A stretch of DNA of 64,000 nucleotides from Dictyostelium discoideum (Eukaryota), in the NCBI GenBank assembly GCA_000004695.1, contig CM000151.3, positions 3,808,001-3,872,000 on the forward strand. The letters run 5' to 3'. A program made the position numbers and the translations under genes. The number at the start of each line of letters is the position of its first letter. Positions within the stretch are counted from its first letter, which is position 1. The notes under the pieces were generated by a model that had not been told where the DNA came from, ran no database searches, and saw nothing but the letters and a program-made list of their open reading frames with translations. This document shows, piece after piece, positions 33,916 to 53,451 of this stretch.

Positions 33916-35427
33916 AGTGAAGCATCAGAAGCATTAAAGAAAGGAAAGAAATATCAACATACAATACTTATAATTAAACCACATAAAACTTTTCCAACTT
34001 CAACTACATCATCATCAATGCCATCTTTTAGTACTACTTCACAAATATCAAATACTAATAATAGTAATAATAATAATAATAATAGTAATAATAATAACTT
34101 TAACAACAATAACAACAAAAATGATAGTAGTGATATTTCTTTAATTTTAAAGAAAGATGATGAGTTAATGTTAAGATCACATGAAAGAAATTTAAGATTT
34201 CAATTAATGAAAAATGCGCCACAACAACAACCACAACAACAACCACAAGTACAACCACAAAAACAAAAACAACAATCAACACTTTTAAAGAATGAAGAAG
34301 ATAATTTAGATGATGAAGATGAAATTGAAGAAGATGATATTAATGATGATGATGAAGAAGAGGATGAAGAAGATGAGGATGAAGATGATAATATTAATCA
34401 ATCACCACCACTTAAGGCTACACAATCAAATACAAATCCTACATTAGCCCAACAAGTACCAACAACAACAACAACAACAACAACAACATTAGCATTAAAA
34501 AATAATAATGGACATAAAATTGGATTATGTTTAGATTTTATACCATCAAAAGAGAAACAACATAGAACATCATCAGGTGATATTAATATATTAGAGAAAA
34601 CCCCAACCACTGGTGAGTTAATCCTATTGAAAAAGTATAAGAGAAATGTAGCAGATGATAATACAGAGATTCCACCCGATGAAATTAGACCAGTACATGT
34701 GTTATTAAAGGTAATGAATTATATCACTCATGAGATCTCTGATCAAGAATCACTTCAAAGACCTGGTGTAACATTTTCAGAGATTCAAAATTTCATTCGT
34801 GATAGAACTAGATCCATTAGACAAGATTTAACATCTCAACATTCAAAAGATGGTATTTCAATCGATATCCATGAGAGATGTACTCGTTTTCACATTGTTT
34901 CACATCATTATCTTTGTGAACTACCCGATAAGGATTTCAATGCATTTCAAAATCGTGAACAGTTGAATAATTGTTTAACCTCTTTAAAACAATTCTACAA
35001 TGATCATTTCAAACAATCCAATGGTCTAGTGACAACCAACGAACCAGAATTCCGATCCTATTACATTTTAAATAATTTAGAGAATAACTATGATTTGGTA
35101 TCCTATATGATCGATATACCTCGTTCAATCTTTCATCATCCATTCATTCAATATGCAATCGAAGTTTGGAAAGCTTATCGTTCCGACAACTATAGTAGAT
35201 TCTTTATGTTAACTCTATCGGGTACTTATTTACAAATGTGTATACTTCATCGTTATTTCACTCATGTTAGAAAGATTGCAATCAAAAGAATCGCTAGATC
35301 CTATAGAGCTCCGAAACAACCAACTACTCTTTTCCCAATTCAAGATTTTAATAATATCTTAATGTTTTCTGATTCAAATGAAACTAATCATTTCATTTCT
35401 ACAATCAATGGTATTACAATTGATTCA

Positions 35428-35458
<31 letters not shown>

Positions 35459-38400
35459 GTGGTGGTGGTGGAGGTGATCAAATTATTTTCAATCATTCTT
35501 TTAATTTTAATCAAATTAATGATATTTCAATCACTCCTTATCGTTCTTCCATTGTAATGTCACGTGCACCTAAAACTTTTCAACAAACTATTGATGTACC
35601 AGAACCTGTACCAATCGTTCAATATCGAAAATGTTTCATTGATTTTGATCAATCTTTTCAAAATCCTTTAATATATAATAAACAAAATCTAGATGCTGAA
35701 TCTGAACAATCTGAATATAACTATTCAATAGCTGCTTCTGGTCCAATGAGAAGTTTAGTAACTAAAAATGCAATTGCTACTTTTGGTTTAAGTAATAAAA
35801 TAACTCCAGTCCTACCTTCAACAATAACAACAGCAACGACAACAACATCACCACCACCAATAACAACATCAACCATACCAATTAAATTACCAACTATTTC
35901 ACCAACTTTTGTTAAACAAATACCTCAAACTTCACCAAAAATAAATAATACCAACAATATCAGTACGATTGGGTCTCCATCTATTTTTAATAAACAACAA
36001 CAACAACAACAAACACCACTACCAACAACAGCAGCAGCAACAACAAAAGAAATGACAATAAGTCAAAGTCCAACCATAACATCACCATCTACTCCTTCTA
36101 CCTCTTCATTATTTAATAATAAAACAGGTTTTGGAATTAACAACGTAGTTAATTCAAAATCGATATTTCAAACTCAATTAGCACCAACAACAACAATAAC
36201 AACAACAACAACATCAATACCAACCATACCAACTCCTTCTACATTAAAAACAACAACCATTGAAAACAAATCATCGATAACATGTGTTTTTCCAACCTCT
36301 TTTCCTGATAAGAGTATCTTTGGTGCAACTTCTAATAATAAACAAACACTTCCAACTTCTTCTTCTTCTTCAGTCTTTGCAACCACAACACCACCTTCAT
36401 CTATATTCTCCAATACTCCTTCTTCTTCTTCTCAACAAAAATCATTCAACACTAACATTATCTCACCATCTCAATCAACACCACCATTGGGTGGCAATGA
36501 TTCACTTAAAATCACTACACCTCCAAATAAAACCATTGAAACCACGCCCAATATAACACAATCATCAAATTTATTAAATAGTGGTAGCAGTAATTTATCC
36601 TCAAATTCATTATTTTCACCAACTATTTCTAATACAACACCAAAAACACCAACAATCTTTAATAATGAAAGTAATAATAACAATAACAAAAAAAACATCT
36701 TTGGTGATACAAAAATAGTCACACCAAAACATTCATCATTACCACAAGATTTATTTGGTTCACCAATTGTAAAAGAGATACCATCAACACCAATGAGCAT
36801 TTTACCAGGTAGTAAAAGTACATCTCTTATAGACTCTTCAACAATAACAACAACTGAAAGGGATAAAAAAAGAAGAAATAGAAATGATCAACAAGAAGAT
36901 AATGTCAACTTAAATACACCAATACCAATATCAACTGTTAAACCACAATTCACTGATTTCCCATCATCTCCAATGAATTTATCAACACCATATGTTAATA
37001 AACAATCTAATTTCAGTCTTAATCAACATCAACAGCAACAGAAACAACAACAACAACAAATTCCCTTCCCTTCAAATCTAATTGAGCTCGAAAAATCTAC
37101 ATCCAAAGTTCAATCACTACCACAACAACCACAAATACTACAAACAAAACCACCTCAATCATCAATGCCTATTGTTAAAAAACAAACAAAATCCTATTCA
37201 GAGAAATCGAATAAAACATTACTTTCCTATATGTTTAGATGTTGGAGATTTCAATTATTACGTTTTAAAAATCAACAAAAACAAATTCAAGAAATTGGTG
37301 ATGAAATTCCACTAGATTTAGATAATGAAAATACTTTAGACCCTATTATATTATCACAATCTTTAATAACACCTAAAAAACTATCACCATCAATTCAGCC
37401 TCAATCAATTTCAAAACAACAACAACTACAACCACAATTACAACAACAACAACAACAACAACAACCACTACTACTACAACAACAACCAATTAAAATTGAT
37501 TTATCACCAATAAATATTCCATTTTATATATACGATAATCTAGATAAAATTAATAGACAAAATCAAAAAGGCAAACCCCTATTTTGGAAACTTTTATATT
37601 GTTGTCCAGATCCTCAATTTAATAATAATAATATTAATGATAGTGAAAATAACATTAAACAAATTATTGAAATTATTTCAAATAAATTATCATACGAGAG
37701 AAATAAATTACAACAACAACAACAAAACTATATTACAACATTATGTCAAATTCAAAAATATCATATAGAATACAAAGATCAAAATTCACAAATGAAAAGT
37801 AAAACTGCTGATAGGTCAATAGGTATTTGCGTAAATAGAGTTTTCAATACCAATACTAATAATAGTAATAATAATAATAATAATATGGAATTACAACATA
37901 TTCAAATGACTAGAGGTCTCTCTTCGATATTATTTCAAATATCAACAAGTATTGGATTCGATTCTAATTGTAAATTACAATTGTCTAGAATTTTAAATTC
38001 AATTCAAATTGAAGATCCTATTCAACGTATACCAATATTATTTTTAATTATAAATGATAATGGGGATAATAATAATAATAATAATAATGATAAAATTGAA
38101 AGATCAATTGAAGAATATATTATCAATAATCAAAGAATTTGGGGTGAAATTATAAATCAAATTAAAGTAATCAAAGTAGATAGAATTGATTCAATAGTCT
38201 ATAATAGTTTTAATGGTGATTCTGATAATATATTGGTTAAATCTTTACAATGGTTAAGTAGTAATACCCCTCCAATTCCATTCACAGAGATAAGACCTTT
38301 ATCCTCGGTATTTGATTCAGTAATTGTCAATAAATTTTCAAGTAGTATCTTTAGCCATTATTCAAAACAATTCCAAAATCCAATAATATATAATCAGCAG

Positions 38401-38854
38401 CAGCAGCAGCAACAACAACAACAACTCCCAACACCACAAACTATTGTTAGTTATTTCAATTTTGTAATTAATCAATTGATTTCTTTTATAACAAATCCTG
38501 CTTTGAAATCTATTCAATGGCCAATACCAGAATTTAGTGGAAGTTTTAATACTTCTTATTGGAATAGTGATCAAGTGTTCAACTCTATAAAAATATCACT
38601 AAATTCAATTCTCTTAAATAATTTACCAAATGAATTAAAAGATTTAGTTGGTGCAATATCTAAAATTGCTGATGACACAACAAATAATTTAACATCATCA
38701 TCACAACAAAATCAAACACTCTATCAAGCAATTGAACCAATAATTAAACAATGCAATAATTGGATATCATCTCATCAAAAAGATAAAATCGAATCAATTA
38801 ATATTGATAACCAAGTTAGAGAAATTTTTAATGATCAATTTATTGAAAAATTTG
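33916..38854 (+). CDS. GANP/SAC3-family protein, exon 2: the SAC3/GANP domain plus a very long low-complexity S/T/N/Q-rich region.
   Basis: The acceptor tatAG is at 33914-33915. The exon begins SEASEALKKGKKYQHTILIIKP. The SAC3/GANP domain is IRPVHVLLKVMNYITHEI...IRQDLTSQHSKDGISIDIHERCTRFHIVSHHYLCE...NREQLNNCLTSLKQFY. The track ORF's tail ...GNFHLHFFFFFFFFF is read-through of a GTAATT donor at 38855. Confidence 0.7.
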
Positions 38855-38946
38855 GTAATTTTCATTTACATTTTTTCTTTTTTTTTTTTTTTTTTTTTTC
38901 TTCTCCTAAAATTTATTACTAACATTTAATTTATATATATATATAG

Positions 38947-39770
38947 AGAAATTCAATAAAATTAATAATGGATATTTTATAGTAATACCATGGCATTTAA
39001 TATTTGAAACAATATTTTCTTATCAAATTAGTAAGATTCCATTCATTCAGTCATTTTATAGCGATTCAATGATTAATGACCTTTTAGATTTTAATAGTTT
39101 TATTGGAAATTATAATAATAATAATAACTACAATATTAATAGCCAATATCAAAATCAAAAGATTATATCATTACCAATAAAGAGTCTTAATAATAGTATT
39201 TTAATTTCACCATCAAAGAAAAGACAGACCAATTTTAATAATAATTTATCCTCTCCTTCAAAGTATCATAGAGTTCATTTTGATGAAATGAAAATTAATG
39301 ATCTTGATACTATTACCACCACCTCCACCGCCACTACCTCATCCAACCCAATGAAAAGAAAACAAAATATTATAAATAATAATGTAGGCATCAACAATAA
39401 TCAAATGTCGGCATCATTATCATCAACTCGTAATAATAATAATATACTAAATAGCCAAATCCAATTAAGTAAAAGTTTAAATTCCAAAAATCAAAGTACC
39501 TCTAGAACTTTGGATCAATTATTGTTAAGTTTACAAAATGAAAAGAAAAAGACAAAAGCTATAAATAGATCTCTTATTTCCACTATAAATACCTACAACA
39601 ACAGAGATAATAATAGTAATTTTAATTATGATGATCAATTAATTAACTCAACTTCAAACTCTAAAGATATGATTTCAAGTACAATTACATTTAAAAACCA
39701 TAAATTGACTGGTAGTGTTTTGGATGTATCCGAAAAACTATTGTTTTTGATAAACAATAGTAATAATTAA
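38947..39770 (+). CDS. Proposed terminal exon of the GANP/SAC3-family gene. The alternative is an independent Asn-rich ORF beginning at 39069.
   Basis: The phase-1 donor at 38855 joins in frame to the acceptor tatAG at 38945-38946, or alternatively to 38981-38982. The downstream frame is open from 38910 through the track ORF 39069..39770 (MINDLLDFNSFIG...). No separate upstream ATG context is visible. Confidence 0.35.
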
Positions 39771-40102
39771 ATAAAGAATTTTATTATCAGCAATATAAAT
39801 CGTTTGTTGTTTTTTTGGATTTTTTGACTTGTTTTTTTTTTTTGGATTTTTTGGTTGTGGGTTGACATTGAATCTTTTCTTTTTAACCTTCTAAAACTGT
39901 ATTATCATTAATATTTGATTTTTAAAAAATTAATAAAGTTATTGATTCTAAAATTTGAATTTAAAAGATTTTTTTTTTTTTTTTTTTTTTTTGATATAAA
40001 TAAACTATTGTAGTATACAATTAGTATGTTATTTTTATTTATTTATTTTAGGTTTTTTAGTTTTTGTGAATTTAAAATAGTATGTTATTTTAGATTAGGT
40101 AA

Positions 40103-43100
40103 TTAATAATTAATTGGTGGTGTAATTGTTGGAATTGGTTCATTTGTGTTTATGCTCCATTCTTTTTTAAATTTTTTGATGGTTTCGGACCATTGGGTTT
40201 CTTTTTGAGTTTTTGTGAGGTTGTTTTTAATTGAGTATTGGTTAAAGTTTGATAAAGTTCTTGAATATTCCAATCTTATTAGCTTGTGCCATTTTGATTT
40301 TAATATATCATAATCTAGTGTTGTGTTGTTTATTTGGTTGTTCCAATTATCAATTGATTGAGTTATATTGATGTCAAATAATGATTTGCATAACCATATC
40401 CATATTTGGTGAATAACTAATGAGATTATGTTCCAATATGCATGTGTTCTGACTAGATCAAGATTTGTGTTTATATAATTCCAGTTGAACCTGTATTTTT
40501 TATATTGTGCGTTTTCTGCAAAATGAAAATTAATATTGATAGTTGGATCTGGTTTAAATGCTTTGTTGTTTGTTTGTGGTTTATAGATGAGTGTGTATAA
40601 TTTTGTTGTTTGGTTTTTTGTTAGTGACCAGTTTTTGTTTCCATTGCAATTTTTATATATAAAATATTTTAATTTGTCGTGGTTAATGAAGTTGATTGTG
40701 CGCTGACAATTGAAAAACAAATGCCCATAGGGATCATTATTCATTTCATTGTTGCAAATGGGGCAAACTTTGTTGTGTAGATGATTAATCGGAAGACATC
40801 TAGCATGGAATCTTTGCATTGTATCACGGCCTTTTGGATCTTTTAATTTTTGAATTTTGACAAAAAGTTGGTCGTATGTGTATTTCCATAATAGTTGTAT
40901 TGATTGTTGGTGCGAAGTAAGAAGTAGATCTGAATATTTCTTGCCAATATAGTCTTTTGATTTGCATTGGTGATTGTTTAGTATTGTCGAGTAGATTTCT
41001 TTGAGTGTTGGTGGTAGTGAAATATTATTTGTGTTTAATGTTTGAGAGGGTTGGTTTTTTGTTAATATTGGTTGTAGGATTTGAACTTTATCTTTTAGAT
41101 GTCCAATTTGAGTTGCATAGTTTTCCCATTCTTTTTTGATTTTTATAAGGTATGGAGAAGAGATTGATTTGTTGATGATTTGATCCATCCAACTTATCAT
41201 GTATATTGAATTGTTTGCAGATTTATGCATTTGTAAAAATCTGTTGTATATCCAAATCTTTTGAGCAACTTGTCGTAATTGTATATTCCACATACCCCAA
41301 CCACCTTCTTTTAATGGTTTTAATGATCTATCATAACACATCAAAGGTATTTTTGCACGTGAATGGATGGTTGATGTGTTGTTTTCAATGGAATTGGTAT
41401 TGAGAGTTGGTGATTCAGAATTTGCGGGAGAATTCATAAACCATGAGATTAATTTATTAATTTGAATTTCTTCATCTTTTGTAAATTCTTCAAGGTATGA
41501 TAAATATGTTATTGGTGATAGTGAGTAGGTGTTTATGATGGTTGTTTTTGTTTTTAATGTTGTGCCACTAGTTTTCCATAGCACTAATGATTTAATCAGT
41601 GTTTTCATTGTTTCTGGTAATTTCCTATGTAAACCATTATGATTAAAGAAATAGCCAAGAACTCTTTCTGATTGATCTTTTTTGGTTATTGGTATTCTTT
41701 TTGATTGTGGAATGTTGTTTATTATGTGTTTATCAGTGATTTTGTGGGGGTTGATTTCTATTATTGCACTTTTGTCAAAATTTAATGATGATGATGTTGA
41801 AGCGCAGAAATTATCGAAATGTTTGATTGATTGTTGTTGTTGTTCGTAGTTGATGTTGTATGTTGTAGAGTCGTCTGCAAATTGGGTAAATTTGATTTTA
41901 ATTTGTGGATTGGGTGAAATTGGTAATCCAATTATTGAATTGTCTGCATTTATTGTTCTTGCTAATATTTCAATTACAATTACAAATAAAGTGGCTGAGA
42001 TTGGGTCACCTTGTTTTACACCTCTTTTAATATCGAATTTTCTGGTCGTTTTACCATTAATTGAAATTTTTGCTTGTGAGTCAGATAATAGCTTGTGGAT
42101 TAAATTTATTAATTTTATTGGTATACCAATATGAATTAATGTTCTTTTAATGCTATCGTGAGAGATAGAATCAAATGCTTTAAAGAAGTCAAATAGTGTG
42201 ATGATACCAGGGAGGTTTTTAGATTTGAGGTAGTTGATTAATTCATTGATGTTGATGATGTTGTCTATGATGAATCTGTGGGGTACGAAACCAGTTTGGT
42301 TGTTGTTGATGATGAAAGGAAGTATTCTCAGAAGACGTGCATTGATTACTTTTGAGAGGATCTTGTAATCAGTGTTTAGAAGTGTAATGGGACGACGATT
42401 TGATATGAGTAAGGGGTTGCCTTTCTTGTATATTGTGTGTATAAGACCTTCTGTGAATTCTGTTGTGATGTGGTGAGGATTTTCTAGTATATCGTTGAAT
42501 AATGTAGTGAGAATTGGTTTAACTTGGTTTAAATGATTAATGTAGAATGCATTTGTAACGCCATCTGGACCGGGTGATTTGTTGGGGTTACAGGTTTTAA
42601 TTGCAGCTTCAACTTCATCTTGTATAAATGGTGAGTCTAAACCATTCCAATATTCATTTTTTATGATGGGCCATGTGTTTAGCATGAGCTGGTGAGTAAT
42701 TGGACAACATATTTGTAAGCTATATAGATTTGTGTAGAATTCAACAAACGCATTTTCAATTTGGTCGGGGTCGGATGTAATGATGTTACCATATTGGATT
42801 GATTCAATTTTTGCATCTTTTGATCTTTTGTTTAGTATTGCTGATAGATACTTGCTAGGTATTTCTCCATTTATATGTTTTTTTAATATGTTTGTGTGGT
42901 TTTGATGTAATTTGTTTTTGTTACATATAATATTGTATTCAGCGATGCATTGTTCTTCAAGATGTTTGAATTTTGCTGCTTTTTCTAATAGTATTTGTTT
43001 TGCACGTTGAGTTTGTTTGTCTTTGTTATATTGATAGTTTTTTAGAGTTTTAATAATTTTTGATTTTACTTTTGACCAGTTTGTAAATTGATTGATTGAT

Positions 43101-43459
43101 GTGTTATTGTGATTAGTTATTAAATGATTGATAATATTGATTGCTTCATGGTCATTTGCAGTACCAGGTGATAATATCCATCTTTTCTTATGTTTATTTA
43201 TTTGAAAAGGTGAAGAAATTGTTGTTGATATTGGATTATGATCTGATAATGAAGATGGAATTTGGTGGACTTGTGTATATATATTTTCAGGGTCTATTCT
43301 ATTGTATTGAGTATATATTCTATCTAATCTGTTGCCATGTGTATGAGTTGGAGTGTTTTTAAATTCACCTTGATCAATTAGATGGTGTTGGTATGTGTAG
43401 GATTGGATAATATCATCTAATAGTGAATTGTCGTTGTGGATACGATTTTTTCTTGCCAA
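40103..43459 (-). CDS. Retrotransposon ORF2 remainder: the APE C-terminal half (SDHNPI), the reverse transcriptase and a Cys-rich C-terminal domain. The frame is open but has no ATG; the track's M is a TTG.
   Basis: ARKNRIHNDNSLLDD...SLSDHNPISTT is the APE C-terminal motif. RT blocks include ...PDGVTNAFY..., LLNTDYKILSKV, FTQFADDSTTY and a CCHC-like CPICNNEMNNDPYGHLFFNCQ. Confidence 0.7.
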   Translation of the reverse strand: MARKNRIHNDNSLLDDIIQSYTYQHHLIDQGEFKNTPTHTHGNRLDRIYTQYNRIDPENIYTQVHQIPSSLSDHNPISTTISSPFQINKHKKRWILSPGTANDHEAINIINHLITNHNNTSINQFTNWSKVKSKIIKTLKNYQYNKDKQTQRAKQILLEKAAKFKHLEEQCIAEYNIICNKNKLHQNHTNILKKHINGEIPSKYLSAILNKRSKDAKIESIQYGNIITSDPDQIENAFVEFYTNLYSLQICCPITHQLMLNTWPIIKNEYWNGLDSPFIQDEVEAAIKTCNPNKSPGPDGVTNAFYINHLNQVKPILTTLFNDILENPHHITTEFTEGLIHTIYKKGNPLLISNRRPITLLNTDYKILSKVINARLLRILPFIINNNQTGFVPHRFIIDNIININELINYLKSKNLPGIITLFDFFKAFDSISHDSIKRTLIHIGIPIKLINLIHKLLSDSQAKISINGKTTRKFDIKRGVKQGDPISATLFVIVIEILARTINADNSIIGLPISPNPQIKIKFTQFADDSTTYNINYEQQQQSIKHFDNFCASTSSSLNFDKSAIIEINPHKITDKHIINNIPQSKRIPITKKDQSERVLGYFFNHNGLHRKLPETMKTLIKSLVLWKTSGTTLKTKTTIINTYSLSPITYLSYLEEFTKDEEIQINKLISWFMNSPANSESPTLNTNSIENNTSTIHSRAKIPLMCYDRSLKPLKEGGWGMWNIQLRQVAQKIWIYNRFLQMHKSANNSIYMISWMDQIINKSISSPYLIKIKKEWENYATQIGHLKDKVQILQPILTKNQPSQTLNTNNISLPPTLKEIYSTILNNHQCKSKDYIGKKYSDLLLTSHQQSIQLLWKYTYDQLFVKIQKLKDPKGRDTMQRFHARCLPINHLHNKVCPICNNEMNNDPYGHLFFNCQRTINFINHDKLKYFIYKNCNGNKNWSLTKNQTTKLYTLIYKPQTNNKAFKPDPTININFHFAENAQYKKYRFNWNYINTNLDLVRTHAYWNIISLVIHQIWIWLCKSLFDINITQSIDNWNNQINNTTLDYDILKSKWHKLIRLEYSRTLSNFNQYSIKNNLTKTQKETQWSETIKKFKKEWSINTNEPIPTITPPINY

Positions 43460-43489
43460 TATATTCTTTTGATTTGCATTGGTGATTGT

Positions 43490-43930
43490 TTAGTATTGCG
43501 AGTAGATTTCTTTGAGTGTTGGTGGTAGTGAAGTTGCATATGAATTCTTTTTGATGGTATTATTTGATGCTGGTGCGTAAATTCCAAGAATACCAATTGG
43601 TAATTGATTTGGAAATATAACGTCTGCTAAAATAGCTCTACCATCAATTGTTGATATGTGTTTGAGTTTGAGTGTGTTTGGGTTATGGTTAATGATGATT
43701 ACACCATTTCCTCGTTTGGTGACAGAGATGATGTGATCGGGAAAATCATGTTTAAGTTGTAATGGTGATGAATTGAGTTCAGTGAGTATTGAGATTGTTG
43801 GACGAGGTGGAAGTTTTGATATAAGTAGTTGTAGTGTGTCAACAGCTTTTTGGTAGGAATTGTGTTGATTGTTTGGGTTTTCAGTGAATCCTCTACAATT
43901 CCATGTTATAAAGTTGATTTTTGAGCTCAT
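43490..43930 (-). CDS. Retrotransposon ORF2, N-terminal half of the apurinic/apyrimidinic-type endonuclease domain. It is truncated by a stop inside an inserted 84-bp duplicate.
   Basis: MSSKINFITWNCRGF...LTELN... then ...SLPPTLKEIYSQY*. The last 12 codons come from the duplicated segment at 43452-43545. Confidence 0.65.
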   Translation of the reverse strand: MSSKINFITWNCRGFTENPNNQHNSYQKAVDTLQLLISKLPPRPTISILTELNSSPLQLKHDFPDHIISVTKRGNGVIIINHNPNTLKLKHISTIDGRAILADVIFPNQLPIGILGIYAPASNNTIKKNSYATSLPPTLKEIYSQY

Positions 43931-45135
43931 ACCTTACTAGGTTTGGCAGCACCAGTATTGACTGGTTGTGTAGTCAGGGCATTGCTGCTTCTTCTTGTAT
44001 TTATTGGATTTGGAGTTGGTGCACTTGGTTTGTTTGGTTGAGATTGTAGAGGTTTTTGTGGTACAATTGTTGGATCGGTTGGATTGCTCATTGATAATGA
44101 GTTTTTCCCGTTATTATTATTTGAAGAATCACTTTTGTGTGAAATTTCATTATTGTTTTGGGATTGATTGTTAATATCAAGTGATTCATTTAGTATAGCT
44201 TTTGAACCACTATTTTGAAGTGAGTTTTTATTGCGATTGGAATTTGCAATTTCGTTGATTGGTGGGGTGTTAATGTTGTTTTTTGGTGGTTGATTGTTTT
44301 TGTTCATGTTTGGGTTTGTGATGGCATTTTTTATAGTTGTTGCCATATCTGCATTTTTTGCATGTTGAATTTTGTGTTTAGTGACACTACGTGTTGCAGC
44401 TTTGATATATCTTGTGATACCAGATGGTTGTTCGATCTTTTGATCAACAATGTTGTGTGTGTGATCAATTAGATGATATGTTATAATGTAGCTTTTAAAC
44501 GCAACAGCATATGAGTATGTGACAGTAAATGATTCAATTGATGTACAACTGGTGAATTTAGTGAGGTTGTTTGTAATTGCATCGTTTGCATGTTTGGGTG
44601 AGTACGTTTTAATGAATGTTTTAATGATTGCATAATCATTTGATGATATATCGAATCTATAGTTGAGTTTGTCGATATTTAGTGCAAGTTGGTTTTGAAG
44701 GTTGATTATTGAAGTTAATTTATCAACGTTGCAATTTACGAAGGCAGTTGCACCAATTATTTTGAATGCTGATGGCGACAGTATATCTTCGAAGAGTTTG
44801 TGAATGTTTTTGTGAATTTGTTGAATTCTTGTGTCATCTTTTGAGGTTAATTCTTCACGGATGTGTGGTTGATTAAAGTAACACTTAATGTTGATGGTGT
44901 TATTGTTTTTTTCTAAGAAAGAGAGTGGTCTTGTGATTGATGGAGGTGCAATGATATCTAATTGATTATCAAGTCCTTTGTTTAGTGAGAGTTGGTTTGT
45001 TGGGGTTTGTTTTTTAGGTGTGTCGATTTTTGCACTTTTGTTTTTTGTTGTTGAGGTTGTGGAGGTATTATTTGTATTGGTTGTGTTGTTATCTGTATGA
45101 TTTAACTGTAATTCAGTTGAGTGATCATCAGCCAT
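43927..45135 (-). CDS. Retrotransposon ORF1 (402 aa, a T/N/S-rich nucleic-acid-binding protein).
   Basis: Canonical ATG at 45135. The TGA stop overlaps the downstream ATG in an ATGA arrangement (43930-43927), typical of ORF1/ORF2 termination-reinitiation. Confidence 0.7.
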   Translation of the reverse strand: MADDHSTELQLNHTDNNTTNTNNTSTTSTTKNKSAKIDTPKKQTPTNQLSLNKGLDNQLDIIAPPSITRPLSFLEKNNNTINIKCYFNQPHIREELTSKDDTRIQQIHKNIHKLFEDILSPSAFKIIGATAFVNCNVDKLTSIINLQNQLALNIDKLNYRFDISSNDYAIIKTFIKTYSPKHANDAITNNLTKFTSCTSIESFTVTYSYAVAFKSYIITYHLIDHTHNIVDQKIEQPSGITRYIKAATRSVTKHKIQHAKNADMATTIKNAITNPNMNKNNQPPKNNINTPPINEIANSNRNKNSLQNSGSKAILNESLDINNQSQNNNEISHKSDSSNNNNGKNSLSMSNPTDPTIVPQKPLQSQPNKPSAPTPNPINTRRSSNALTTQPVNTGAAKPSKV

Positions 45136-45321
45136 TGTTGAAAAGTATATAGGACGATAGCCCTTGCTTTAATGAGCAAAAATAGGGTAAAATTAAGAGG
45201 AATGAATGTGGCGGTGAAGATATAACAGTGATTTATTTATTATATGTATAAATTCTCGTTTATTTCTTTGTTTTTTCGGTTTTTTGTTTTTCAAAAGATT
45301 TTTTTTTAAATTCTATACAAA

Positions 45322-45332
45322 GAATCGAACCT
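45322..45332 (-). promoter_or_regulatory. External B box (exB): an extra pol III B-box-like element GGTTCGATTC about 28 bp downstream of the tRNA-Gln gene.
   Basis: The reverse complement of gaatcgaacc at 45322-45331 matches the B-box consensus GGTTCGANTCC. This layout is characteristic of Dictyostelium tRNA genes. Confidence 0.55.
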
Positions 45333-45358
45333 ACGATCTAATATTTCCGATTTAAAAA

Positions 45359-45431
45359 TGGTTCTACTGAGACTCGAACTCAGATTACAGGATTCAAAGT
45401 CCTGGGTGCTAACCAATTACACTATAAAACC
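45359..45431 (-). tRNA. tRNA-Gln (anticodon UUG), 72 nt plus discriminator.
   Basis: The reverse complement is GGTTTTATAGTGTAATTGGTTAGCACCCAGGACTTTGAATCCTGTAATCTGAGTTCGAGTCTCAGTAGAACC. It folds with a 7-bp acceptor stem (one G-U), a D-stem GTGT/GCAC, anticodon stem CAGGA/TCCTG with loop CTTTGAA (anticodon TTG), and a T-arm CTGAG-TTCGAGT-CTCAG. It is very similar to eukaryotic tRNA-Gln-TTG. Confidence 0.9.
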
Positions 45432-45863
45432 TTGATGTTTTTATAATTTTATATAGTAACTATTATGCTTAAAAAAAATTTTGATGTTTAAATTTATTAT
45501 TTTAAATCTGGATAAATGAAAGAAAGTTGATCAAGTTACACTTAAGCCTAAAAAAGAGGTAGGGCTACAATAAAAAATTCAAAAAAAATTGAATTAGAAT
45601 AGATAATAAACTCATTTCAATCTTAGGTATTTAGAATTTAAAGTTATTGGTTTATAAAAACATAATTAAAAAAATCATTTATTCACGATTACCTATGTTT
45701 TGTTTGGTTTTAGTGTTCTCATCATGATTATTGAACTTTATATATATATATATATTACATTTATTCATTAAATGTAACCAAAATATAAATACATATAAAA
45801 AGATTTTAATAAATTAATATTAATCTTTTTTTTTTTTTTTTTTTTTTTATCATATTATATTAT

Positions 45864-46143
45864 TTATTTATTTTCTAATTTTGAAAGGATTTGAATTTGT
45901 TCTAAATCTTCCAAATCTTTTAATAATTTTGCGGCATTGTAACGAAGTTTATGAAAATTATCGATTGAAACTTCAAATACTTTTGATTTACCATTGGTAT
46001 CGTTCATTTCCATTAAAATTACAGGATTGAGCACTCTAGATGTAAAACTACTGCTAATGATTACATCAACTCTCCATTTAAAACTTGATAACTGAGGGAA
46101 TAATATCTTATCATTATTTGATCTTTCTGCTAAATCTTTACTC
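45864..46143 (-). CDS. COMM-domain protein, exon 2 (COMM domain).
   Basis: The acceptor is the reverse complement of ct at 46144-46145. ca+g = Gln, then SKDLAERSNNDKILFPQLSSFKWRVDVIISSSFTSRVLNPVILMEMNDTNGKSKVFEVSIDNFHKLRYNAAKLLKDLEDLEQIQILSKLENK*, which gives the COMM signature (W-R-V-D-V ... L ... F). Confidence 0.65.
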
Positions 46144-46312
46144 CTATTTATTGTAAAAAATAAAAAATAAAAATAAATAAAAATAAATAAAAAGTATTAA
46201 TAAAATTGACTGTTATTAATACTCTCTAATTTTATTTATTTAAAACTTTCATGATGGGGGGTTCTCTTTATAAATAAAAATAATAAATAATAATAATAAA
46301 TAATAAACTTAC

Positions 46313-46722
46313 TGAGTGTTATAAATATTTGTTAAATCAGTTATTAAGTTTTGTGGTAATTTAAGATCAGTTATATCAGCGACGAATATTTGATTTGAAA
46401 CTTTCTTCTTTAAGGCAACCTTTAAAATATAATAGAGACCAGTGAAAACGATTGATGATAGATTTGGATCTACTTTATTATCATTTGATGATACTGTTAA
46501 TTTATCATGAATAGATTCTGTTATTTGATTTAATTTATCCTCTTCTTCTTTTTTTACTAAATTAATCATTTTGGTTTTCATATATAGAACCAACAATGAT
46601 AATATATCCTTAATAAATGTTTGTTCAAACTTTTGACAAACTGGTATCATATTCTTTACCTCTGATGGTATATTATAACCTAAATATGAGACTCTTTCTG
46701 TCAATTTCTTTATTATAAACAA
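46313..46722 (-). CDS. COMM-domain (COMMD-family) protein, exon 1.
   Basis: MFIIKKLTERVSYLGYNIPSEVKNMIPVCQKFEQ...DLTNIYNT followed by 'ca', then a GTAAGT donor (reverse complement of 46307-46312), phase 2. The track ORF's stop codon is the TAA inside that GTAAGT. Confidence 0.6.
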
Positions 46723-47207
46723 ATAAATAAAATTAATAAAAAAAAATAAAAAAAATAAAAAAAAAAATAAAAAAAAATAAAAATAAAAAAAAAGATTTTT
46801 TTTTTTTTTTTTTTTTTTTGGTCTTCTGATTGTTCCTCTGAAATTTTTTTATTTTTTATTTTTTTTTTATTGTTTAATTTTTAATATTTTCATTTTTTTA
46901 TTTTTATTTGTAGATATCTTTATTTTTAGAATTTTTTTTTTTTTTTTTAATCCTCCAATAGTTAATCTACAAAAAAAAAAAAAAAAAAAAAGAAAAAAAA
47001 AGAATTAAACTTATAATCTTATAAAAAAAAAAATAAAAAAAAAAAGAGATATCTCTATTTTTTTTAATCAAAAAAATTTAAATAAATTTAGAGATAATAT
47101 TTAATAAATAAGTAATCTTTTGGTATTTTATTAAAAAAAAAAAAAATTTTAATTATTTATTTTCAATCTTTTTTTTTTTTTTTTTATTATTTTTTTTATT
47201 TTTATTA

Positions 47208-48917
47208 TTATAACCAATTATATGACTTTTTATTTCCATATTTTAATATTATTCTTTTAATTCTTGATTTTAAAATATTAATAAAAATTTGATAAAAATA
47301 TTTCAAGATACGAATATTATTATTTAATACATTTTGTTTTATATGTTCAACTTTAATTTCGACAAATATTGGATGTAAACGCATAATTAATTTACATAAA
47401 TATAAATTTGGTTGAAGAAATGCCATTGCAAATATCGAAAATTTAGAAGTTAATAAACTATCAAAAATTAATTGATGGTGATTTCTTAATAAAAATTCTG
47501 CAATATCTTGTGGATTACTATTAAAACTACTACTATTATTACTATTATTACTATTATTACTATTATTACTATTATTATCAAATTCACTTTCATTTTCACT
47601 CTCATTTTCATTTTCATTTTCACTTTCATTATCACTATCAATAATTTTATATTCATCGCAACTAAAAATTGATTTTAATAAATCTTCATTAATTCTTTTT
47701 ACTTTACAAGTTGATAAAATGAATTTCACTAAATCTAATCTTACTCTTTCCAAAGCAAATTCTAATAATAATCTATTTTTTAATAATTTTAAAGAAACTA
47801 TTGATTTAAATAATTCTAAATCATTATTACCATTATTATTATTATCAGTGATATCCATTTTATGATTTAAACTAAAATCATCACCATCAGAAATATTTAA
47901 ATTGAGTAAGAAACCTAAATAATTAATCTTTTTAAGATTAAAACCATCTGAATGAATTTCTTTTAAAAGATTTATAATTGTTGAACTTTCTTTAACATTT
48001 ATTAGATATTGCATATCAAAATAAAATCTAGTTTTAATTTTACTATCTATATCTTGATCAAACATTGAATCCTTTTCTAATGAATCAATATAATTATTAA
48101 TTAATCTTCTTAATTTTAAAAATATCTCTTCAAAATTTAATTTTAATATTAATTTAAGTGTAATTATTTCTTCATTTTTTTGTAATTTTTGTGGTTGTTG
48201 TGATTCTGAATCTTCTGTTATTAAAATTGTATTGTTTTTATTTTTACTATTTGTAGTATTTGTAGTATTTGTAGTATTTGTAGTATTTGTATTTGTTGTA
48301 GTTGTTGTTGAATTTGAAATTTTAGTTGTAGTTGTTGAAGAAAAGAATTTATTATAATTTTCAAGATTACTATATTTAAAATTAAAATTTTTTACTCTTG
48401 ATAAGAAATAATTTGATAATTTCCAAGATTTATGATACAAATAATAAAACATTTTAAAAAAGTTTGGAATTGAATTATAAAAAGACATTGAGATATTATT
48501 TCTTTTAAAGAGTTGATTCAATTTTTCAATATTAATTAATTTAGTTGAACTTTGTAAACCAATGATATATAAATGTTTGAAAAGGTGATTAATTGAATTG
48601 AATGTACTATTTTTAAATTTAATTGATAACATTTGTTTTAATTTAATTAATTCATCAGATACTAAATAAACATCTTGAAATGAGATATCGTCTCTAATGA
48701 ATACTCTATTCTCTATTGGATCTATGATTTTATATAAACTATCATAATATTCTATACTAAATTGATTATCAATATCTCTTTTCAATTGTTGATCATTAAA
48801 TGAATCTTCTGTAATATTTGAAAATTGTAATAATATAACTTTTGAAACTTCAAAATTACATTCTAATATTGAAAATGCTAATAATCTAATTGATGATTCA
48901 TCATAATTTGTATCCAT
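47208..48917 (-). CDS. Hypothetical 569-aa protein with poly-T/N/S tracts and no recognisable domain.
   Basis: A long uninterrupted ORF with a canonical ATG at 48917. It contains a TNTNTTNTTN-type repeat and an acidic NESENENENESE tract. Confidence 0.45.
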   Translation of the reverse strand: MDTNYDESSIRLLAFSILECNFEVSKVILLQFSNITEDSFNDQQLKRDIDNQFSIEYYDSLYKIIDPIENRVFIRDDISFQDVYLVSDELIKLKQMLSIKFKNSTFNSINHLFKHLYIIGLQSSTKLINIEKLNQLFKRNNISMSFYNSIPNFFKMFYYLYHKSWKLSNYFLSRVKNFNFKYSNLENYNKFFSSTTTTKISNSTTTTTNTNTTNTTNTTNTTNSKNKNNTILITEDSESQQPQKLQKNEEIITLKLILKLNFEEIFLKLRRLINNYIDSLEKDSMFDQDIDSKIKTRFYFDMQYLINVKESSTIINLLKEIHSDGFNLKKINYLGFLLNLNISDGDDFSLNHKMDITDNNNNGNNDLELFKSIVSLKLLKNRLLLEFALERVRLDLVKFILSTCKVKRINEDLLKSIFSCDEYKIIDSDNESENENENESENESEFDNNSNNSNNSNNSNNSSSFNSNPQDIAEFLLRNHHQLIFDSLLTSKFSIFAMAFLQPNLYLCKLIMRLHPIFVEIKVEHIKQNVLNNNIRILKYFYQIFINILKSRIKRIILKYGNKKSYNWL

Positions 48918-51913: not shown

Positions 51914-53085
51914 ATTATTCGATTTTAATTTATTTTTATTATTATTATCATTTTTGAATTGCATTTCAGATTCAGATTCAGTTTCTGAACCAGAGTCTCT
52001 ATCATCATCATCGTCGTCGTAATCGTCATTTTTATTATTATTATTATTATTATTGTTATTCATTTGTTGTTTAGTTTTTTGTTGAGTTTTATCTTTTGGG
52101 ACTAAATACTTTAATAAATTTAATTTTAAGGGAAATGTGAATGAATTATGAAGCTTTTTCTTTTTCAATTGTTGTCTATCGAAACTATATCTAAGTATTT
52201 GAAAACAAAGAAAAGGTGGTATTGTTGTGAGTTGTGTTGAACGTGAACAATCCGTTTTCTTATTGCAATTTTTACAAAAATATTGATCATCACCAGTTAA
52301 ATTTTCATTTGAGAGGAAACCTTTTAAAGATTCCTCTAATCCTTCAAATCCATTTAATTGCAATGGAATTTCATAAAATGAACTTGGTGATCTATATATT
52401 GTATTACAATCTGAACATTGTGTAGTATAATCATAATTTCCTTGAAATAACTTTTTTAAAATATTAACACTATTATTATTATTTTTATTATTATTATTAT
52501 TACTATTATTATCGAGAGAAATTTCTAATTTTGATTCGATTAAATCAAAAAATAAAATAAAAAATTCTTGGATATCTTGATGTAAAGAATTTGAAAGTTC
52601 TAATGAATTTACAAATTCACTTGGATCAAATACTTTAATTCTATTAAACCTCATATTCAAAAATAATAATCTTAACTGATCAATAATAAAATCCTCATTA
52701 TGAATATTATTACTATTATTGTTTTTGCTGTTGTTGTTGCTTTTGCTGTTACTGTTGTTGCTATTATCTTGATTGATATCAGATGGTAATTTAAATTCTA
52801 ATACCAACTTTCTAAATTCAGTATTCATATATAAAAGTTGTAATAATGAATTTACATAACAGGTTGCACCAAGATTCTTTAAACCTATGGGTTGTTCTGA
52901 TATATCTCTTTCTTTGAATTCTGAAAGTGATTCCTTATTATTATTTTCATGTGGTAATGATTGATTATTTATCAAATCTTTCATTAAGTTCTCTTTAACA
53001 TAAACATCTGGTTCGATTTTTAAACATTTTTGACCTAAATGGTGGAAACAATTTGGATTATCTGAACAATTTTTTAATAATTTCT
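49525..53085 (-). CDS. USP48-like deubiquitinase, exon 2: USP catalytic domain (Cys and His boxes) with large low-complexity insertions, followed by three DUSP-like repeats.
   Basis: The acceptor is the reverse complement of ct at 53086-53087, and the frame is open upstream of the track's ATG at 52984. The Cys box is GLKNLGATCYVNSLLQ and the His box is GGHYICQIKDDITGRWFTFNDETV. DUSP-like segments are YWIDVNWLKGWIQG, YISYEWFKRWKIS and YNVISKDWLINWRS. A GTATGT donor (reverse complement of 49519-49524) leaves phase 1. Confidence 0.8.
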
Positions 53086-53184: not shown

Positions 53185-53389
53185 TTTTATTACAAACCAA
53201 ATTGATATTTAATGTTTTATTTAATAAATTTGAAAAAAAATTAGATTCATTATTTGATTTGGTTATTTCCTTTAATAAATCTGTATCATTATTATTATTC
53301 GTGACTGAAGAAACTCCATTTACTTTTTTCTTTAATGAATTGATTAGTTCAATATTACTTTCAAAGTTTCTTTGTGTTCTTTTATTCAT
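53185..53389 (-). CDS. USP48-like ubiquitin carboxyl-terminal hydrolase, exon 1 (N-terminal 68 aa).
   Basis: MNKRTQRNFESNIELINSLKKKVNGVSSVTNNNNDTDLLKEITKSNNESNFFSNLLNKTLNINLVCNK followed by 'a', then a GTAAAA donor (reverse complement of 53179-53184), phase 1. It joins to ...KKLLKNCSDNPNCFHHLGQ, which parallels the human USP48 N-terminus ...GVCRRNCKGNPNCLVGIGE. Confidence 0.55.
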
Positions 53390-53451
53390 AACTGTTTTTT
53401 TTATCCTTTTTTTTTTATTTTTTATTTTTTTTATTTTTTTTATTTTTTTTG

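Follow-up and report, generated by a model that had tools for sequence, protein, structure and literature searches.

An internally repeated TRE3 retrotransposon beside tRNA-Gln(UUG) in the Dictyostelium discoideum AX4 reference: a probable assembly chimera

Introduction

Internally deleted, non-autonomous derivatives of non-long-terminal-repeat (non-LTR) retrotransposons exist, such as the TRE5-A.2 deletion variant of Dictyostelium. Template-switch rearrangements are familiar from elements of the L1 type, where they comprise twin priming, internal deletions and chimeras formed by jumps of the reverse transcriptase (RT) at microhomology. We know of no precedent for a double RT jump that returns to exactly the same register. 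The object considered here is a TRE3 element located next to a tRNA-Gln(UUG) gene in the AX4 reference sequence of D. discoideum, within 64,000 nucleotides of contig CM000151.3 (assembly GCA_000004695.1, positions 3,808,001 to 3,872,000 of the forward strand). This whole stretch is called the window, and positions refer to it unless another locus is named. The element contains one segment of its second open reading frame (ORF2) twice. It is quite probable that the reference placed a read spanning a deletion junction in register on paralogous or consensus TRE3 sequence. The 2511-bp interval 41022-43532 is probably absent from this locus in the real genome, and the element truly there most likely has the 2.8-kb, internally deleted form found in an AX2-like assembly.

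Identity of the element

TRE3 elements are situated 40-150 bp downstream of tRNA genes whose orientation they share, make use of an external B box, possess two ORFs with an APE-RT-zinc finger (ZF) arrangement and a -1 frame, and end with an oligo(A) tail (PMC5006619, PMC5911963); the role of external B boxes in TRE3 targeting has been described (PMC5911963). The element in the window shares with the family the site downstream of a tRNA gene, the B box, the two ORFs, the -1 frame, the oligo(A) tail and the target-site duplication, and it is an ordinary, already known TRE3 retrotransposon copy. A preliminary description of this DNA, made from the letters alone, had placed a TRE3-type element just downstream of tRNA-Gln(UUG), on the same strand and past the external B box, and the position, the ORFs, the poly(A) and the duplication agree with that placement. 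Both the element and the tRNA-Gln gene are encoded on the minus strand in the same orientation. Upstream of the first base of the element (45292), the external B box is 29 nt away and the tRNA-Gln 3′ end 66 nt, the latter within the 40-150 bp range of integration (PMC5911963). The 3′ A-run (39969-39992) comprises 15-24 A residues, and oligo(A) and the duplication are hallmarks of target-primed reverse transcription. The sequence setting is AT-rich Dictyostelium DNA, and tRNA-Gln(UUG) is the sole tRNA found by ARAGORN in the 64 kb.

The order of the ORF2 domains (partial APE, RT, CCHC) and the -1 frame are those of TRE3, with the APE domain incomplete in this copy. The window ORF2 as written differs from the family in having one stop and no GDFN endonuclease motif. 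For comparison, three TRE3 copies were taken from an independent D. discoideum assembly, one nearly full length (L003, product P0007), one rearranged (L001, P0003) and one 5′-truncated (L004, P0006); the AX4 protein P0001 spans the same region. All three lie downstream of a tRNA gene, 40-65 bp away (tRNA-Thr, tRNA-Gly and, in one case, an atypical tRNA call), and their DNA identity with the window element is 94-98%. A second TRE3 copy suitable for comparison was sought within the window, where only the internal repeat and low-complexity matches were found. Among the subfamilies A, B, C and D, the abundant TRE3-A is the putative assignment.

The repeated segment

The two copies of the segment, A and B, are 89-90 nt long including a shared octamer, TTCACTAC, and are spaced by about 2511 nt, on which repeat finding and BLAST concur. 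Two 34-nt halves of the segment occur exactly twice each in the 64 kb and were never found in 100 shuffles, so the repeat is not due to chance. The octamer opens both copies and has no further occurrence in the element. Copy A is in frame within the C-terminal region of ORF2 (…NNISLPPTLKEIYSTILNNHQCKSKDYIGKKYS…) in the two compared copies that retain this region, P0006 and P0007. At the position of copy B, P0003, P0006, P0007 and P0001 have the native sequence ...NSYATSL-QTLLHNHSTNPIPNQSQHVSIIAGDFNC-IHNDNS.... The native APE sequence in three copies and the presence of copy A in two of them indicate that A is native and B is specific to the window copy.

Copy B consists of the octamer and 81 nt of ORF2 C-terminal sequence. 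These overwrite 81 native nucleotides (28 codons, flanking partial codons counted) and leave the flanks in frame. The overwritten sequence encodes QTL...IIAGDFNC, which means that the catalytic GDFN motif is lost; accordingly, the match of the window element to Pfam Exo_endo_phos covers profile positions 1-116 of 225, while that of the native P0007 reaches position 225. The shared octamer contains the 5′ junction of copy B. At its 3′ junction, GGCAAGAAAAAATC|GTATCCAC, the 5 nt immediately ahead of the resumed native sequence fit neither source cleanly. In comparison with copy A, copy B has one deleted A, one C>A and two T>A at its 3′ end.

Part of what the preliminary description reported of the repeat stands: the presence of the segment, the native state of copy A and the copy-specific nature of copy B, and the 1-nt deletion in copy B that creates a stop after ...KEIYSQY. 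The segment pair had been recognised correctly with positions about 10 nt off (corrected in Table 1), and the one mismatch and one indel reported between the copies were right, with the two further T>A at the 3′ end of copy B missing from the account. The proposed insertion of copy B between the halves of the APE domain has to be abandoned, as the element gains no length: the exchange is of 81 nt for 81 nt and of 28 codons for 28. It had also been suggested to look for other copies with a contiguous APE domain lacking copy B, and such copies were found, with GDFN intact. A duplication common to the family, with the segment present twice in the TRE3 consensus, was rejected on the native GDFN sequence that the other copies have at the copy B position.

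The same locus in other assemblies

Orthologous loci were obtained through the 90% cluster of the COMM-domain protein P0015, with the exon of the COMM domain-containing protein 5 (COMM5) gene used as a query. In D. citrinum (L002) and in two divergent D. discoideum assemblies (L005 and L006, probably CR116C and OT3A), the tRNA-Gln gene is present and the element is absent. When the D. citrinum spacer was scanned with Rfam for a further tRNA-like gene, tRNA-Gln was the only one returned. L005 and L006 are about 83-95% identical to window positions 38000-47500, and their intergenic DNA past the external B box is unalignable. Because this DNA is too diverged in L005, L006 and D. citrinum, the boundaries of the element were set from the target-site duplication within the window.

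The occupied locus, L007, belongs to GCA_054883475.1, a de novo assembly from Nanopore and Illumina data, where a 4.9-Mb contig is continuous through the locus. The assembly is taken to be that of AX2-214, since this is the sole NC4-lineage strain in the BioProject of Holland et al. 2025 (PMC12745789), and is referred to below as AX2-like. With L002, L005 and L006 empty and L007 occupied, the insertion is confined to the NC4-type lineage among the assemblies examined.

Outside the element, L007 is practically identical to the window. It has the tRNA-Gln(UUG) gene and contains the same insertion, 2.8 kb long, with a single copy of the segment. Window positions 47500-43436 align to L007 9208-13270 and positions 41021-38000 to L007 13173-16194, and the overlap is exactly one repeat unit. 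In a three-way alignment, L007 has the native N-terminal half of APE (identical to that of the window over 43533-43930) followed by TTCACTAC, from which the copy-A region carries on without a break as far as the 3′ end. With 837 codons removed, the deletion keeps the frame, and what remains of ORF2 is 439 aa long and annotated as ACTFIT_003323, a fusion protein whose own cluster has one member. The 5′ untranslated region (UTR), ORF1, the ORF2 start and the 3′ end are kept; most of ORF2, including the RT, is gone. Copy B of the AX4 reference corresponds to the first ~81 nt past the deletion junction of L007, with changes, namely one deleted A and three T>A, which are denser near the 3′ boundary of copy B. 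The two-copy structure is thus not reproduced in independent long-read data from the lineage, where the segment occurs once and the interval is missing. To a large extent, these data point to the mis-assembly that the preliminary description named as refuting its own reading, although they come from a sister strain and not from AX4 itself.

The reverse explanation would be that the AX4 reference is correct and that the AX2-like assembly collapsed 2.5 kb between the repeat copies. TRE3 is a multi-copy family, and assemblers do fail at repeats. However, a repeat of 85 bp is far under the scale at which long-read assemblers collapse sequence, and the AX2-like contig passes through the locus without a break. 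The junction region has private alleles where an artefact of collapse or polishing would give consensus ones, and the very presence of copy B in the AX4 reference means that AX4 DNA included a molecule in which APE-N was joined at TTCACTAC to the C-terminal region. Such a collapse is extremely improbable.

The preliminary description regarded the repeat as a datable scar of template switching or gene conversion. According to a history of this kind, an RT template switch or an intra-element conversion would have taken place in a full-length NC4 insertion, and AX2 would have lost the 2.5 kb afterwards when copies B and A recombined. With a length of about 85 bp and a spacing of 2.5 kb, direct repeats such as these suit single-strand annealing or unequal exchange, the product of which is exactly the AX2-like structure, and the 8-nt microhomology at the 5′ junction is compatible with a template jump. 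A crossover between B and A predicts, however, that the AX2-like sequence downstream equals that of the window downstream of copy A. Instead, 6 differences are found in the 320 nt past the junction, followed by none in the next 2700 nt. Four of the six are alleles private to L007, one of them at the A/B mismatch site, where copy B has A, L007 has T and the other copies have C; at the indel, L007 yet has the copy-A state. Moreover, the exact replacement of 81 nt by 81 nt would be a coincidence, and the deletion must have arisen and been fixed in about 50 years of culture. It is very improbable that this was the course of events, and an in-register overwrite involving a segment that is single-copy in the AX2-like assembly lends no support to a dating of the repeat.

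The element parts common to the two assemblies differ at 8 sites, and at 6 of these the window has the allele shared by other TRE3 copies and L007 a private one. In ORF1, the window and L007 differ at 45032 and 44864; from there to copy B, the 1330 nt present in both (44863-43533) are free of differences. Inside TRE3 copies elsewhere, the AX4 and AX2-like assemblies do agree: the products of two further loci show no difference along 399 and 490 aa, locus-specific variants included. This makes the present locus exceptional.

Reference quality around the element

In about 17 kb of unique flanking sequence, wherever a substitution separates the window from L007, the window is the one that stands alone, and L005, L006 and D. 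citrinum side with L007. Such substitutions form clusters at 53376-53418, 47281-47285 and 46568-46704, with a single further site at 52254; the remaining differences concern homopolymer lengths only. The cluster at 46568-46704 comprises nine window-specific substitutions in 137 nt and is located in the COMM5 gene (minus strand), where the ATG is changed to TTG at 46704, which shortens the AX4 gene model. The latter has 205 aa, compared with 223 aa in all eight other members of the cluster (AX2-like, two other D. discoideum, two D. cf. discoideum, D. citrinum, D. firmibasis and D. dimigraforme). The COMM-domain product of the window agrees with the AX4 protein P0015 at residues seen in no other strain, which identifies the window as AX4 reference sequence of chromosome 2. 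The nine substitutions in COMM5 are almost certainly base-call errors in the reference, and the clustering of window-only differences indicates that the reference is error-prone hereabouts. A locally poor reference and paralogue-type alleles inside the element, both expected of an assembly chimera, are thus found together.

Probable origin of the second copy

The read-level course of events described below is what we infer from the in-register overwrite, the single-junction allele of the independent assembly and the clusters of errors confined to the reference. A TRE3 copy would have integrated 66 bp downstream of tRNA-Gln(UUG) by target-primed reverse transcription in the NC4/AX laboratory lineage; normal TRE3 integration beside a gene transcribed by RNA polymerase III is indicated by where the element sits, by its poly(A) tail and by its target-site duplication. 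An in-frame deletion of 2511 bp would have fused the N-terminal half of APE to the C-terminal region of ORF2 at the 8-nt microhomology TTCACTAC. Two routes to this deletion, which the data do not separate, are a jump of the reverse transcriptase from one TTCACTAC site of the RNA template to the other and a microhomology-mediated deletion after integration. Being without the RT and half of the endonuclease, the deleted copy is non-autonomous at best. A Sanger read crossing the deletion junction would then have been aligned through its endonuclease part to full-length TRE3 sequence, either of paralogues or of a consensus. The last ~81 nt of the read, in truth belonging to the C-terminal region, would have been retained in the consensus column for column and make up copy B, beyond which the reference would run on in full-length TRE3 sequence foreign to the locus. 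We infer that AX4 DNA carries the same deleted allele as AX2.

Several features are in line with such an origin. An equal-length, in-register overwrite is expected when a read is laid on a template, and would be a coincidence for two independent biological junctions. The greater density of changes at the 3′ boundary of copy B resembles the end of a poor-quality Sanger read. The sharing of window alleles with paralogues at sites where L007 is private is expected if paralogous reads entered the reference. The 1118 codons located 3′ of copy B are fully open in the window, while the three real copies have from 4 to 8 or more frame changes and stops there, so the central part looks like a consensus. 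The genome assembly group of D. discoideum spanned gaps in centromere regions by a transposon consensus matched to contig ends (PMC2665215). Like Sanger-era chimeric or consensus-filled repeats, the locus shows the end of a locus-specific read in register in consensus-like sequence, clusters of base-call errors nearby and a conflict with a long-read assembly of the same lineage. The central 2.5 kb was also scanned for blocks identical to one of the three paralogues, which could point to donor reads; the differences are evenly spread, with three copies only available to the comparison.

Some points weigh against the chimera. The independent assembly represents a sister strain and not AX4; AX2 and AX3/AX4 were derived separately from NC4, and a strain difference is possible. 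Copy B is no exact copy of the junction, since it has A at the A/B mismatch site where the AX2-like sequence has T. The alleles at 40724 and 40701 are private to the window, and paralogous reads do not explain them. Finally, the statement on gap filling by consensus covers centromeres and not this locus (PMC2665215).

A real copy B would be retained if the lost sequence had been refilled. The NC4 allele would have been deleted as in AX2, and the AX3/AX4 lineage would have regained 2.5 kb by ectopic conversion. After a break about 85 nt past the deletion junction, repair from a full-length TRE3 elsewhere would have begun with pairing of the 3′ end through the homology of the N-terminal half of APE. 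The unclipped, non-homologous tail of ~81 nt would have primed synthesis roughly in register, and the C-terminal half of APE, the RT and the copy-A region would have been copied before re-annealing. The refilling accounts for an overwrite of equal length, for a central ORF that is intact and for the blurred 3′ end of copy B, as well as for the presence of the junction only in the AX2-like assembly and for the consensus-type alleles of the window just downstream of copy A, where the AX2-like sequence has private ones. It requires, however, that a rare ectopic repair was fixed within a few decades of laboratory culture, that four extra changes occurred in the 81 nt of copy B and none in the 1330 nt upstream of it (44863-43533), and that separate conversion tracts produced the ORF1 differences at 45032 and 44864. 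The clusters of errors in the surrounding reference are a simpler source of all these features. Refilling is an unlikely explanation; if true, it would be a dated case of a deleted retrotransposon repaired by ectopic conversion in a laboratory lineage.

Under the preferred explanation, an assembly chimera, reads should contain a 2.8-kb element with the single junction ...GCAACTTCACTACCACCAACACTC..., and none should contain GGCAAGAAAAAATCGTATCCAC. The AX2-like allele resembles known deleted non-LTR derivatives in that the 5′ and 3′ ends are kept, the RT is gone and 8-nt microhomology marks the deletion. In contrast to such derivatives, a single copy with the AX2-like junction was seen, with no sign of an amplified subfamily or of mobilisation in trans. 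The TTCACTAC junction has the microhomology signature expected of L1-type template switches; these would explain the deletion junction but not the second copy of the segment.

The biology of TRE3 is little affected: both the family and the way it targets tRNA genes have been described well, and there is nothing remarkable in a copy that is dead and rearranged. To those who use or curate AX4, the chromosome-2 locus probably presents a 5.3-kb TRE3 where the genome has a 2.8-kb deleted one, and the start codon of COMM5 has apparently been lost only through sequencing errors in the reference. Counts of full-length or near-intact TRE3 elements based on the reference, as well as any dating from the duplication, would mislead.

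Coding content and coordinates

The coordinates of the locus and its features are collected in Table 1. ORF1 has no match in Pfam, and TRE ORF1 is likewise without a Pfam match in the literature (PMC5006619). ORF2 extends over 1276 codons (43930 to 40103, minus strand) and is interrupted by one in-frame stop.

Table 1. Features of the tRNA-Gln(UUG) locus and the TRE3 element in the window
Feature	Position	Strand	Remarks
tRNA-Gln(UUG)	45359-45431	-	Integration target; ARAGORN
External B box GGTTCGATTC	45322-45331	-	27 nt 3′ of tRNA-Gln; direct sequence reading
Target-site duplication, 5′ copy AAAAAAAAATCTTTT	45293-45307	-	15 bp
TRE3 non-LTR retrotransposon per AX4 reference	39978-45292	-	5315 bp including poly(A)
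ORF1	43927-45135	-	402 aa; stop overlaps ORF2 ATG (ATGA), so ORF2 is in the -1 frame
ORF2 start and native APE N-terminal half (ITWNCRG ... GIYAP ... NSYATS)	43533-43930	-	Pfam Exo_endo_phos
Copy B	43444-43532	-	Octamer TTCACTAC (43525-43532) and 81 nt of ORF2 C-terminal sequence
ORF2 in-frame stop TAA	43490-43492	-	Sole one; created by 1-nt deletion inside copy B
Interval missing from the L007 insertion	41022-43532	-	2511 bp; one repeat copy, APE C-terminal half, whole RT, part of C-terminal region
Reverse transcriptase RVT_1	41735-42427	-	Pfam E = 1.5e-30; residues 345-575 of 1118-aa ORF
Copy A	40932-41021	-	Native, ORF2 C-terminal region; in frame in L004/P0006, L003/P0007 and the AX2-like allele
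CCHC zinc-knuckle motif CPICNNEMNNDPYGHLFFNC	40706-40765	-	
Poly(A) tail	39978-39992	-	Limit against the A-run of the target-site duplication ambiguous
Target-site duplication, 3′ copy AAAAAAAAATCTTTT	39963-39977	-	Same 15-mer

Other TRE3 copies and neighbouring genes

The rearranged TRE3 copy of L001 (7841-12016; GCA_054883475.1, JBTAPE010000039.1) lies behind a tandem pair of tRNA-Thr(AGU) genes, 42 bp from the second, and is heavily affected by several internal deletions, by inversion of a 349-nt segment (element positions 2169-2517) and by many stops. In L004 (3737-7365), the annotated "gene" (AX4 DDB_G0271006, orthologue ACTFIT_007383) is a chimera of upstream exons and a 5′-truncated TRE3 ORF2. 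The truncation falls within the 81 nt that are replaced by copy B in the window element, probably by coincidence. The anticodon reported by ARAGORN for the tRNA just upstream of this copy has 4 nt ("gtag"), and the tRNA may contain an intron or be atypical.

Gene models P0001 and P0007 (AX4 DDB_G0281357, ACTFIT_011390; L003) and P0021 (L007 11570-14091) splice TRE3 ORF1 to ORF2. In all of them, an invented intron (…EISHK|RFTENPNN…) evades the -1 frame change; what looks like a fusion of ORF1 and APE in these database entries is thus an annotation artefact and not a deletion.

As for the neighbouring genes, the substitution at 47281-47285 (TT.T for GG.G) is close to the 3′ end of a 569-aa ORF, the five changes at 53376-53418 are upstream of a ubiquitin-hydrolase gene, and the site at 52254 is an isolated C/G. 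A homology search with the 569-aa neighbour returned the D. citrinum orthologue alone, the candidates being dominated by low-complexity words. Exact-protein look-ups with ORF1, the 146-aa fragment of ORF2, the neighbours of 569 and 1157 aa and the AX4 proteins P0001 and P0015 matched no recorded entry. On the plus strand, a gene of the SAC3/GANP family (34018-39770) ends about 190 bp from the TRE3 poly(A). Its 1634-aa ORF enters a poly-Phe tail (...HLHFFFFFFFFSSPKIYY) at 38922 and a 233-aa ORF picks up at 39069, with probably a short intron between the two.

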